Source of the DNA: Escherichia phage vB_EcoM_Ozark
Direction: 5' to 3' (one strand)
Length of the DNA stretch: 64,000 nucleotides
Sequence record: NC_054927.1
Shown: one piece after another, positions 40,401 to 46,864 of the stretch
Numbering within the stretch: the stretch's first letter is position 1
Layout: each line of letters begins with the position of its first letter
Program-made: the position numbers and the translations under genes
The notes under the pieces: generated by a model
What the model saw: only the letters and a program-made list of their open reading frames with translations
Databases searched by the model: none
Told to the model about the DNA's origin: nothing

Positions 40401-40903
40401 TTAAAAATATTTTTTAAAACTCATCATAACTTTATCATCAACATCATTATCAATCTGTGCAACAAGGTAAGATGACAGTTCTACTTCTTGTGGCGCGGAT
40501 TGAACATTATCAGAATTAAGATATTCACGAATCCAAGGATATGGGTGTTTAACCGGAGCATCGGTAATTGGGCATGGAAGACCACACTGTTTCATACGAG
40601 ATACAGTTAAGTAATCAATAAAGCTCCACATGCTATTTGTATTTAATCCAGGAACATCGCCATCTTTAAATAAATGAACTGCCCAATCTTTTTCTTGGCG
40701 GTTAACTTCCATGAAAATATCAACTGCTTCTTGTTCACACTCTTGAGCAATTTTAACCCATTCATCGCCATCAGTGCCAAGTTGAAGTTGACGAATAATA
40801 TATTGGGTGCCCTTGAGGTGGAGCTGTTCATCACGAGCAATGAACTTCATAATCTTGGCATTACCTTCCATGATTTCCATGTTCTTATGGAAGTTAAAGG
40901 TAC
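40401..40903 (-). CDS. nrdB: ribonucleotide reductase small subunit, exon 2
   Basis: C-terminal NrdB sequence (MEGNAKI...); 3' splice site placed after G at 40904 so the junction reads FYVSFAC-TFNFHKNMEIMEG. Confidence 0.75.
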
Positions 40904-41994
40904 CGTTATGTTCGATTGAGCTCGCTAATTCTCAACCCGTTCTCTTATGAACTGCTACATATTACTATGCAGACCAGACTATATCACAATCCCAGAGGGA
41001 TTCTCCCCATTTCGAGTCGCTTGACCCTACGTCCGAAGACTAGTCGTTGAACCTTGCTTTGCAATTGTCGCCGTGCCATCGTTTATATGTTGATGGTGAT
41101 AAATCTTTCTTATCACAATATGGACAATTCAATTGAATTCTATTTGGATTTAATTTACATCTGTCATTATGTTTTAGATAAAATCCAGGACCTTTACCAA
41201 TGTGACCGCAGAAATCACATGTGATTTCTTTTTGTGCAGGATGGGTCCCGTTCTTAACCATTTCTAATGTTTTTGCTGATGTTCTTTTCTTATGGTCTTC
41301 TGACAAGAAATGATGTGAACCGTCATTTACCCGTTTTGATTGAGTTTCTGACTGCATTTTACCACCGCAAAATACATGAGTACCTTCTTTTATAGCTGCA
41401 ATATTGCGTTCTTTAACTTTTGCAATATGCTCAGCTTGTTGAAAATTATGTATACCTAATGCAACTCTATTTAAATTAGATTTACGTTGTATTTCACCAC
41501 CTAAAAGATGAAATGTACCATTTTCTATCTTAGATTTAATAGAGGCAATATTTTTAGCTCGTACTTCAGGGATATTAAAAACCTGGATTTCTCTAGATTT
41601 TGCGGCTTTAGAAGCTAATTCAGAAATTTCTTCAGGAGAATATTTCATTCTGAGCTTTATAGCATGACAAGCCTGGTAGTCTTTTTGAGCTAAATGTATA
41701 TCATAATGTTCCTGTATAGAAAGGCACATCAAATTATCTAAATCATTATTTTCACGGTTACCGTCTTTATGATGGATTTCGTATGTTCTTCCATCAGAAT
41801 CTTTAGGTATAGGTCCGTTAGCATCTATCCAAATTTTTCTATAGTTCAATTGTGCATCCTCTTAAAAGTATAATCATATTTATATTATACTAATTAAAGG
41901 TGCAAGCAAAACCTTGGCTGCTAGTTTTCCTATAAAGGACTTTCCAGCAATTAAAGGAGTTTTCGATAAACGTTACCGTTTAAAGGCGCATTTT
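40904..41994 (-). mobile_element. group I intron in nrdB (about 1091 nt) carrying an HNH homing endonuclease ORF
   Basis: nrdB reading frame interrupted between conserved FYVSFA and CTFNFH blocks; 5' exon ends in U and intron ends in G. Confidence 0.75.
41040..41849 (-). CDS. intron-encoded HNH homing endonuclease (I-TevIII-like, full length)
   Basis: 269-codon ORF with HNH signature (EIHHKDGNRENN...HYDIH) and C-terminal Cys clusters; initiator appears to be TTG with GAGGA SD 7 nt upstream. Confidence 0.75.
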   Translation of the reverse strand: MNYRKIWIDANGPIPKDSDGRTYEIHHKDGNRENNDLDNLMCLSIQEHYDIHLAQKDYQACHAIKLRMKYSPEEISELASKAAKSREIQVFNIPEVRAKNIASIKSKIENGTFHLLGGEIQRKSNLNRVALGIHNFQQAEHIAKVKERNIAAIKEGTHVFCGGKMQSETQSKRVNDGSHHFLSEDHKKRTSAKTLEMVKNGTHPAQKEITCDFCGHIGKGPGFYLKHNDRCKLNPNRIQLNCPYCDKKDLSPSTYKRWHGDNCKARFND

Positions 41995-42670
41995 ACGCAA
42001 AAGATACATAAAAACGAATAGCTTCCAATGCGTTGATTACATGGAGGCAAAGGTAAAGAGATTTCATTAAAGCACGTTTAGCTTCGGCTTCTTGTTTAAT
42101 AGCTCGGTTTAAACGAAAGACGGCATCAGGAGATTCTTTAGCTAGTTCTACAAATTCTTTAGCATTTTCCCATTCACGAGTCTTAACTAGAACATCATCG
42201 TAATAGCGACCAATGGACTCGGCACGTTTCATAATAGCTTTATCTAATACAATCTCATCAAATACCTTTGACGGATCAGTATAAAGATTTCGCATAATAT
42301 GAGTGTATGAACGACTGTGAATAGTTTCACTAAAAGTCCATGTAGCAACCCATGTATCAAGACTTGGGTCTGAAATTAACGACATAAGTACAGCAGACGG
42401 TGCACGACCCTGAATGCTATCTAGAAGTGATTGATACTTCAGGTTATTAGTAAAAATATCTTGCTGATATTGAGGAAGCTTGTTAAATTGTGCAGCATCC
42501 ATCATCAAGTTTACTTCTTCAGGACGCCAGAAAAATGATAATTGCTTTTCGGTTAAATCTTCAAAAACTTTATGACGTTGAATATCATAACGCGCAATAC
42601 CAAGACCTGAACCAAAAAACATAGGTTCTTTTAAAACATCAACTGGATTTGTATTAAAAACTGTGCTCAT
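41995..42670 (-). CDS. nrdB: ribonucleotide reductase small subunit, exon 1
   Basis: N-terminal 225 codons of NrdB ending ...EAIRFYVSFA plus the first nucleotide of the Cys codon. Confidence 0.8.
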
Positions 42671-42721
42671 AAATTTTCCGCTTAGTTAATAGTTGGTGAC
42701 TCGTCCATGAGTCAAATTATA

Positions 42722-45041: not shown

Positions 45042-45773
45042 ATGAAATCTGGAATATATGCTATTATAAACACTAAAACCAATAAGCACTATATAGGAAG
45101 TGCAATTAATTTTGAAGAACGATGGAAACGACACTTTAAAGATTTAGATAATGGAAATCATCATTCAATAAAGCTGCAGCGTTCTTATAATAAGCATGGG
45201 AAAGATGCTTTCGTATGTAAAATCATAGAAGAACTTCCATACGAAAAATCTATCATTATTGAACGTGAAAATTATTGGATACATGAATATGACTCAAAGG
45301 AAAATGGGTATAATATAGCAGACGCATCGTTTGGGGATACCTTATCTCATCACCCAAGAAAGCAAGAAATCCTTAATAAAATTTCAAATGCAATTAAAAA
45401 TAATAATTCAAAATTATCACCAGAAGAACTTAAGCAAAAACATGGTAGACCTAAAGACATCAAAGGTAAAACTATAGAAGAACACTATGGGTTAGATCGT
45501 GCTATAGAAATAAGCAAAAAGTTCCAAGAAAGAAACGCTGCACTTAATATGAAAGGCATCAATAATCCATATTATGGACAGACACATACCAATGAAGTTA
45601 GAAAACGAATTTCTGACTCACAAAGAGGTAAAAAGAAACCCCATCTAAGAGTAAGTATAGATGGGGTAGAATATCCAACAATAGCAGAAGCTGTGCGTCA
45701 AACCGGAATAAGCAGAAAACTTATATCTAAAAGATGTGCTCTAGATTGTTGGGAATCATATTTATACTGCTAA
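45042..45773 (+). CDS. free-standing GIY-YIG homing endonuclease, I-TevI-like
   Basis: 243-aa ORF starting [21 protein letters not shown] with ERWKRHF and [13 protein letters not shown] blocks closely resembling I-TevI; opposite strand to nrdA and td. Confidence 0.8.
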
Positions 45774-46007
45774 AGTTCTACATTCGTCATATTGTTTTTC
45801 CGTTAAAACAGTAATATCGTAGTAACAGTCAGAAGAAGTTTTAACTGTGGAAATTTTATTATCAAAATACTCACGAGTCATTTTATGAGTATAGTATTTT
45901 TTACCATAAATGGTAATAGGCTGTTCTGGTCCTGGAACTTCTAACTCGCTTGGGTTAGGAAGTGTAAAAAGAACAACGCCAGAAGTATCTTTAAATCGTA
46001 AAATCAT
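45762..46007 (-). CDS. hypothetical protein translationally coupled downstream of td
   Basis: 81-aa ORF whose ATG overlaps the td stop (ATGA). Confidence 0.5.
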
Positions 46008-46864
46008 ATTGCCATTTTCCCTTTAATTGCTGGATGCGATTCATAATTTTCAAGGATAAAATCTTTCGGTTTCATGTATTCAGTTAACCAGTAAAGCTGT
46101 GTTTCGGTGTCACAATTTCCAAACTCTATAGGCCAATCAATTTTAAGTTCACATAGTTCTTTAGGCTCACGACGTAAAATTTCTTTACATTGCTCAGTAT
46201 GATTCATATAGATGTGAGTATTACCACCAGAAAATATCAAATCTCCTGGGATAAGATTACACATCTTAGCCACAATATGCGTCAAGGCAGCGTACGAGGC
46301 AATGTTGAATGGCAATCCCAAGAAAACATCTACACTTCTTTGGTACCATTGTAAATCAAGATAACCATTACGCACATTAAACTGATAGAACATATGACAG
46401 GGCGGTAATGCCATTTGATTGATTTCAGCTGGATTCCATGCTGAAACGATTTGACGTCGATCAGTTGGTAATTTTTTAATACGATCAATAGTTTCAACTA
46501 ATTGATCCACACCACCGAAATCACGCCATTGTTTACCGTATATAGGACCAAGTTCACCACTATGATATCCTAGGTCTTTAGCCTGGTTTTCATAGTTATC
46601 GTCCCAAATAGTTTTACCTTGAATAAGACTACCATGAGTGCGAAGACGTAAATCATTAACATTGGTAGAACCGGAAATAAACCATAGAAGCTCAGCAATG
46701 CATGCATTCCAGGCGAGCTTCTTAGTTGTTACTGCAGGAAAACCTTTAGTTAAATCCCAGCGTAATTTAGTACCGAACAAAGCAATTGTTCCTGTGCCTG
46801 TTCGGTCATCGGTTTCATAGCCATTTTCAAAAATGTCTTTAATTAAATCTTGGTATTGTTTCAT
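46004..46864 (-). CDS. td: thymidylate synthase, uninterrupted (no intron)
   Basis: Continuous 286-aa ORF containing the conserved TS active-site region ([12 protein letters not shown]). Confidence 0.93.

Follow-up and report, generated by a model that had tools for sequence, protein, structure and literature searches.

A probable RB3-type mobile group I intron with an intact I-TevIII gene in nrdB of Escherichia phage vB_EcoM_Ozark

The nrdB gene encodes the small subunit of class Ia ribonucleotide reductase. In phage RB3 this gene carries a group I intron with the gene for the homing endonuclease I-TevIII, an element already known from 1991 (Eddy & Gold) and 2007 (Robbins et al.). Robbins et al. 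(PMC1865063) credit its discovery to Eddy & Gold (1991), who screened natural isolates by PCR. The RB3 enzyme was biochemically characterised by Robbins et al. in 2007; it cuts as a dimer, mutagenesis showed that catalysis and DNA binding require its HNH and zinc-finger residues, and the zinc fingers serve both DNA binding and dimerisation (PMC1865063). The homologous nrdB intron of T4 is described as self-splicing, and T4 depends on mobE for trans-homing (PMC2790892). The middle and late promoters of the three T4 intron ORFs have been located by primer extension, and the ribosome-binding sites of the T4 intron endonucleases are hidden on long early and middle transcripts and exposed on late ones, which start inside the hairpin (PMC2988022). 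The late-promoter and hairpin arrangement of I-TevI is reported to be similar for I-TevIII, for which an operator has been put forward as a proposal (PMC2988022).

The window analysed here is the whole 64,000-nucleotide stretch of record NC_054927.1 from Escherichia phage vB_EcoM_Ozark. Its nrdB gene, on the minus strand, is split between 41995 and 40903 by an insert of 1091 nt (41994-40904). The gene order is that of T-even phages: nrdA lies upstream of nrdB, and denA and rnlA follow downstream. A megablast search with positions 40850-42050 against 50,697 phage records returned 83 records that span 80% or more of the query with identities of 97-99.4%; these include X59078 (99.0%, with its CDS named I-TevIII), KM606994 (99.4%), RB5-RB10, U5 and Bp7. 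Against the RB3 nrdB intron the insert has 98.9-99.4% identity. We give a probability of about 0.96 to the reading that the element is an RB3-type mobile self-splicing group I intron in nrdB, whose P6a loop carries an intact I-TevIII gene. From the near-identity with the RB3 and T4 elements we infer its splicing, timing of expression, cleavage and homing. The coordinates of the features are collected in Table 1.

RB3 (X59078) has the intron in the same gene and at the same insertion site, with a length of 1091 nt in the window and in KM606994 and of 1090 nt in X59078. Its intron RNA is identical to that of the window once the ORF is cut out, its flanking exons are about 97% identical, and the same 269 codons, TTG start, HNH and zinc-finger residues, hairpin and late promoter are found in both. 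RB3 differs in having mobE between nrdA and nrdB, where the window has just a 51-nt spacer. T4 (NC_000866) also shares the insertion site and the ribozyme core, with flanks 97-98% identical to those of the window, as well as the hairpin, the promoter and the Shine-Dalgarno sequence. Its intron, however, has only 598 nt, as 493 nt of the ORF were lost between two imperfect repeats, GAAGAACATA and GAAGACCATA; the residual ORF of 97 aa starts at an out-of-frame ATG, enters the I-TevIII frame past the deletion and has no HNH motif. A preliminary description of the locus had named the T4 copy as truncated and had proposed an alignment with the RB3 and T4 nrdB introns as a check, and the comparison bears out both the truncation and the common site and core. 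In phage vB_vPM_PD112 (MH837626), with the same insertion site and core, the intron has 304 nt, and the I-TevIII ORF is missing precisely between two ACAATTG repeats. The td and nrdD introns of T4, with I-TevI and I-TevII, resemble the window in lying in a nucleotide-metabolism gene, in having the endonuclease ORF looped out from the core and in late expression under the control of a hairpin in which the ribosome-binding site is sequestered (PMC2988022). I-TevI and I-TevII belong to the GIY-YIG family, whereas I-TevIII is an HNH enzyme, and the host genes also differ.

Table 1. Features of the interrupted nrdB locus, in window coordinates
Feature	Position	Strand	Description	Basis
nrdB exon 1	41995..42670	minus	225 codons plus base 1 of codon 226 (Cys)	ORF list; Pfam Ribonuc_red_sm, E 8e-20
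nrdB exon 2	40401..40903	minus	stop codon included; profile positions 174-271	Pfam Ribonuc_red_sm, E 1.9e-11
Group I intron (predicted)	40904..41994	minus	1091 nt; IA-like subgroup with P7.1/P7.2, RB3 type	RB3 identity, empty-site allele, RF00028, helix map
P1	41986..41998	minus	pairing of exon GCGU and intron A1 with UGCGC, the internal guide sequence; 5/5 pairs in all 5 sequences	
P2 hairpin	41968..41981	minus	AAACG-GUAA-CGUUU; one A-U to G-C in S16 (compensatory)	helix map
P3 5' strand, P4, P5	41919..41959	minus	P3 5' strand 41959-41954; P4 41949-41944 / 41924-41919; P5 41939-41936 / 41931-41928	MFE fold, Rfam alignment
P6 and P6a, 5' strands	41906..41918	minus	P6 41918-41916; P6a 41912-41906	MFE fold, helix map
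P6a and P6, 3' strands	41051..41062	minus	P6a 41062-41056; P6 41053-41051; within the ORF end	helix map
P7 5' strand, P7.1, P7.2, P3 3' strand	41003..41045	minus	P7 5' strand GACUA 41045-41041; P7.1 41040-41031 (UUCG loop); P7.2 41027-41014; P3 3' strand 41008-41003	Rfam alignment
P8, J8/7, P7 3' strand	40977..41002	minus	P8 41002-40988; P7 3' strand UAGUC 40981-40977	Rfam alignment, helix map
P9, P9.1, P9.2	40914..40972	minus	P9 40972-40955 (GUAA loop); P9.1 40952-40939; P9.2 40937-40914; one P9 A-U to G-C in T4 (compensatory)	MFE fold
I-TevIII ORF	41040..41849	minus	269 codons and stop; TTG start	ORF list, Pfam
I-TevIII HNH residues	H26/H27 41774-41769; N39 41735-41733; H48 41708-41706	minus		numbering per Robbins et al. 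2007 (PMC1865063)
I-TevIII zinc fingers	41219-41157 and 41126-41061	minus	residues 211-231 and 242-263	
Shine-Dalgarno sequence	41857..41863	minus	AAGAGGA; 7 nt between GAGGA and TTG	
Hairpin sequestering the Shine-Dalgarno sequence (predicted)	41853..41904	minus	41862-41858 (AGAGG) paired with CCUUU 41900-41896	
T4 late-promoter consensus	41877..41884	minus	TATAAATA; at the hairpin top, mostly loop; first T (41884) closes the upper stem	
Homing-site look-alike	41894..41915	minus	17/22 bases as in intron-less nrdB, -12 to +10 around the insertion site	

The boundaries of the insert were placed by comparison with an empty-site allele. When aligned with the window nrdB, the intron-less gene of phage Pinarejo covers positions 1-676 and 1768-2270, and these two blocks are adjacent in Pinarejo (800|801), gap-free on the Pinarejo side, so that the inserted block comprises exactly 1091 nt. 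Many other phages match, in one unbroken piece, a 400-nt query that represents the spliced junction, and inserts of about 300, 600 or 1090 nt are present at the same point in others. On this sequence evidence, the insert boundaries are real to the base. The intron begins with AAAAUGCGCC and ends in ...CAUAACG, the terminal (omega) G being 40904, while the final base of exon 1, T 41995, doubles as the first base of an in-frame TAA (41995-41993).

Joining of the exons gives a 1179-nt CDS for 392 aa, which reads ...AIRFYVSFA-C-TFNFHKNMEIMEGNAKI across the junction, with the codon for Cys226 rebuilt from the U of exon 1 and the GU of exon 2. In the predicted spliced mRNA, the exon 1 end ...UAUCUUUUGCGU meets the exon 2 start GUACCUUUAAC, and the ligated junction would be ...UUUGCGU|GUACCUUU. 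The N-terminal piece of NrdB covers positions 9-141 of the Pfam Ribonuc_red_sm profile, and an alignment of the spliced protein with E. coli R2 (e.g. 1PIY) extends over residues 3-388 (E 2e-125). This alignment passes uninterrupted through FYVSFAC / NALEAIRFYVSFAC, the latter being what we take, from general knowledge of the ligand positions, to be the R2 region between the iron ligands. Precise excision leaves nrdB uninterrupted, as seen in both the empty-site allele and the full-length R2 alignment. The junctions, the length of about 1091 nt, the U and G at the ends of the 5' exon and the intron, and the restored FYVSFAC block of R2, all put forward in the preliminary description, agree with these results, and its coordinates hold exactly on the minus strand.

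The terminal bases U 41995 and G 40904 are those expected from the end rule of group I introns, and a U(41995)·G(41989) wobble in the 5-bp P1 defines the 5' splice site. Window coordinates were assigned to P1, P2, P3, P4, P5, P6, P6a, P7, P7.1, P7.2, P8, P9, P9.1 and P9.2. The I-TevIII ORF sits in the P6a loop, and its final eight codons and UAG stop overlap P6a', P6', J6/7, P7 and the first base of P7.1. The MFE fold of the ORF-deleted intron recovered every mapped helix but two: the sequence of P2 is paired with the intron 3' end, and P7, which forms the guanosine-binding pseudoknot, is of a kind that an MFE fold cannot represent.

The covariance-model search suggested in the preliminary description was made with RF00028, and it supports a group I core, whose conserved catalytic part is formed by helices P3-P8. 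At the gathering threshold (50 bits) there were no RF00028 matches in the window, because the 810-nt ORF in L6a interrupts the model; in E-value mode the model gave 33.9 bits (E 1.2e-6), below the gathering score. This match spans J6/7, P7, the P7.1/P7.2 insertion, P3', P8, J8/7, P7' and P9, that is, the 3' half, and the 5' half of the alignment is forced into the ORF and meaningless. The natural 304-nt ORF-less intron of PD112, whose sole difference from the ORF-deleted intron of the window is a 2-nt deletion in the hairpin loop, scored 68.6 bits (E 4.8e-16) over the full model. T4 gave no match to RF00028 at the gathering threshold, since its truncated ORF still interrupts the model. The missed gathering score of the window is a limit of the model and no evidence against group I membership. 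Sub-threshold Rfam matches within the ORF (rseX, ceN113 and Atu_L1; E 3.7-5.4) were dismissed as chance. 

The pairing was also compared among the window, U5, T4, PD112 and S16. All 91 proposed pairs (454 pair cells) are standard in the five sequences; with the partners slid, the share is 36-45%. Two compensatory double changes, in P2 of S16 and in P9 of T4, were equalled by 24 of 500 shuffles, and this covariation is supportive but thin because the five sequences are about 98% identical.

Judged by its sequence, the ORF within the intron is an intact I-TevIII gene under purifying selection. Pfam HNH_3 matches residues 4-48 (E 6e-13), the catalytic-motif residues H26, H27, N39 and H48 are all intact, and so are two C-terminal CX2CX12-13HX3C zinc fingers (motif definition from PMC1865063), as expected for the full-length HNH and zinc-finger protein of 269 codons proposed earlier. 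The protein is identical to RB3 I-TevIII (CAA41802 / AIT72961) in 266 of the 269 residues (98.9%), with D23Y, I90V and D117G as the three substitutions; Y23 lies three residues ahead of the catalytic H26. Orthologs covering at least 80% of the protein were found in 86 phage records. The ORF of Gelderlandvirus S16 is 87% identical to that of the window at the nucleotide level, and the dN/dS between the two orthologs is 0.107 overall. A Pfam FlgM match to residues 74-117 (26.6 bits, cut-off 25) falls in a helical linker, has no biological context and was considered spurious. A sequence search of the PDB with I-TevIII returned nothing at E <= 0.01.

The TTG start is the one annotated for the I-TevIII CDS in the X59078 and KM606994 (RB3) and S16 records, and from UUG 41849 the predicted N-terminus is (M)NYRKIWIDANGPIPK. 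The preliminary description had called this start from a GAGGA 7 nt before the TTG, which stands, and from a stop as the immediately preceding codon, which does not: the in-frame stop is a TAA at 41864-41862, and four sense codons (GAG GAT GCA CAA), with no ATG, GTG or TTG among them, separate it from the TTG. The residue numbering of Robbins et al. and their '194-269' fragment fit only the TTG-counted protein (PMC1865063). The literature search returned no N-terminal data that directly show initiation at the UUG in vivo, and a review of 2010, in treating the three intron ORFs together, names a generic 'AUG initiation codon' (PMC2988022); this wording fits the truncated ORF of T4, with its out-of-frame ATG, and not that of RB3.

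Two other readings of the locus were weighed against that of an RB3-type intron with a working I-TevIII gene, and both conflict with the structure of the core, the match to the empty site, the pattern of selection and the conservation of the Shine-Dalgarno sequence and TTG. One of them is that the endonuclease is a free-standing cassette and that nrdB is a gene in pieces, with two separately translated NrdB polypeptides that reassemble. Friedrich and coworkers reportedly described in 2007 the mobE-split nrdA of Aeromonas phage Aeh1 as such a gene. ORF finders and several deposited records indeed call two separate NrdB fragments, and an in-frame ATG at 40880 (MEIMEG...) could serve as a start for the second; but no Shine-Dalgarno sequence is apparent upstream of 40880 on visual reading, and a protein started there would lose the conserved CTFNFHKN segment. 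Further, the ORF is flanked by a complete group I core, the ends of the insert obey the U|...G| rule and agree exactly with the empty site, and the homologous intron in T4 is one described as self-splicing. Separate translation of the two fragments is thus extremely improbable.

It is also very unlikely that the intron splices but the endonuclease starts at the internal Met41 or is inactive in this phage. The WilhelmHis record has a 690-nt CDS from this internal ATG, which is the first in-frame ATG of the ORF (codon 41), and TTG is a rare start codon. However, codon 41 lies downstream of H26, H27 and N39, so that the shorter protein would be deprived of three of the four catalytic-motif residues targeted in the mutagenesis of PMC1865063. 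Codons 2-40, which precede that ATG, have a dN/dS of 0.098 between the window and S16, the same as the remaining ORF; they are under purifying selection and therefore translated. The TTG, the AAGAGGA and the 7-nt spacing are identical in RB3, U5, WilhelmHis and S16, the last being the furthest to which they are kept, and HNH_3 already begins at residue 4. As for inactivity, the D23Y substitution is near the catalytic histidines, but Y23 is also the residue of S16 and WilhelmHis.

For the RB3-type intron with I-TevIII, expression would follow the regulation scheme published for T4, which the hairpin and the late promoter of the window match. The fold of 81 nt around the ORF start (ViennaRNA) has -17.9 kcal/mol (z = -3.6), with none of 200 shuffles as good, and every pair of the hairpin is kept in the five sequences. 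Transcription of nrdB from upstream early or middle promoters would run through the intron, whose RNA would adopt the P1-P9.2 core; a guanosine cofactor would attack after U41995, which the U·G pair of P1 keeps in place, and exon ligation after the terminal G 40904 would restore the Cys226 codon and a NrdB of 392 aa. The hairpin would lock away the ribosome-binding site of I-TevIII on such long transcripts, whereas late transcription from TATAAATA would begin within the hairpin, which would leave the Shine-Dalgarno sequence free for translation from the UUG. The enzyme would then work as a dimer, and repair off the intron-bearing allele would copy the intron in (homing; PMC1865063).

Directly upstream of the late promoter lies a look-alike of the homing site, whose 17/22 match was reached by 4 of 1000 shuffles. 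It is tentatively considered that 41915-41894 may be a true I-TevIII operator, through which the enzyme would repress the late transcription of its gene, in the way shown for I-TevI, although we hold this to be rather less than an even chance. A lesser possibility is that this phage, without mobE, would rely on I-TevIII alone for the spread of the intron, with D23Y altering the activity.

The element is a textbook mobile group I intron that adds little new biology, and its practical value is in annotation. In many deposited phage genomes nrdB is split into two 'partial' genes, and I-TevIII is a 'hypothetical protein' or is started at Met41, an annotation that removes the catalytic motif. The correct annotation would be an nrdB CDS joined from 42670..41995 and 40903..40401, an intron at 41994..40904 and an I-TevIII gene that starts with the TTG at 41849. 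One more data point on the distribution of homing elements in T-even phages is also provided by the window, which has the intact I-TevIII with no adjacent mobE, and a free-standing GIY-YIG gene beside td, itself without an intron.

The I-TevIII ORF of the window and that of Salmonella phage S16 (L007 1501–2310) show a nucleotide divergence of 12.7%, with a dS of about 0.59, whereas the non-coding intron RNA of the same two phages is only about 4% different, the hairpin-loop indel being counted. Either the ribozyme is under far stronger constraint than the ORF, or the histories of the two parts differ. A natural nrdB intron lacking the ORF is found in phage vB_vPM_PD112; its loss of the I-TevIII ORF is bounded precisely by a pair of ACAATTG direct repeats, and the remaining intron exceeds the gathering score of the Rfam group I intron model RF00028.

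Upstream of the ORF, the segment 41915–41894 is identical at 17 of 22 positions to the homing site of intron-less nrdB (−12 to +10), a match found in 4 of 1000 shuffles. Judged from sequence, this segment is a possible I-TevIII operator. It lies directly 5′ of the late promoter of the intron, TATAAATA. In phage U5, six nucleotides of the hairpin loop, aligned to about 41883–41878 of the window, are absent and most of this promoter is gone, with the stem intact and both the Shine-Dalgarno sequence and the TTG retained.

Residues 74–117 of I-TevIII (window 41630–41499) matched the Pfam FlgM (anti-sigma-28) family at 26.6 bits against a cut-off of 25, a hit that is probably spurious and caused by the helical linker.

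The defective nrdB intron of T4 is subject to trans-homing by means of mobE (PMC2790892). In T4 and RB3, mobE is present between nrdA and nrdB, whereas in the window neither mobE nor nrdB.1 was found between these genes, which are separated by a spacer only. A free-standing GIY-YIG endonuclease gene is flanked by nrdA and td, on the strand opposite to each, and its stretch is at least 80% covered in only 7 of the 521 matching phage records. The td ORF is uninterrupted; thus, the window has no td intron.

Coordinates of the features in the nrdB–td region and of the ORF-less intron
Feature	Location	Strand	Description
ORF-less nrdB intron	L005 (phage vB_vPM_PD112) 801–1104		natural, 304 nt
ACAATTG direct repeats	window 41853–41847 and 41068–41062
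nrdA–nrdB spacer	window 42671–42721		51 nt
nrdA	window 42722–~44986	−
GIY-YIG endonuclease	window 45042–45773	+	243 aa; NUMOD3 and I-TevI-type DNA-binding domains
td	window 46004–46864	−	286 aa

The database annotation of I-TevIII and nrdB is not uniform among phage records. In phage WilhelmHis (L003 2822–3511), I-TevIII is annotated from the internal Met41, a start by which the HNH residues H26, H27 and N39 are lost. Some public records enter I-TevIII as ‘hypothetical protein’, and nrdB is frequently entered as two partial genes.
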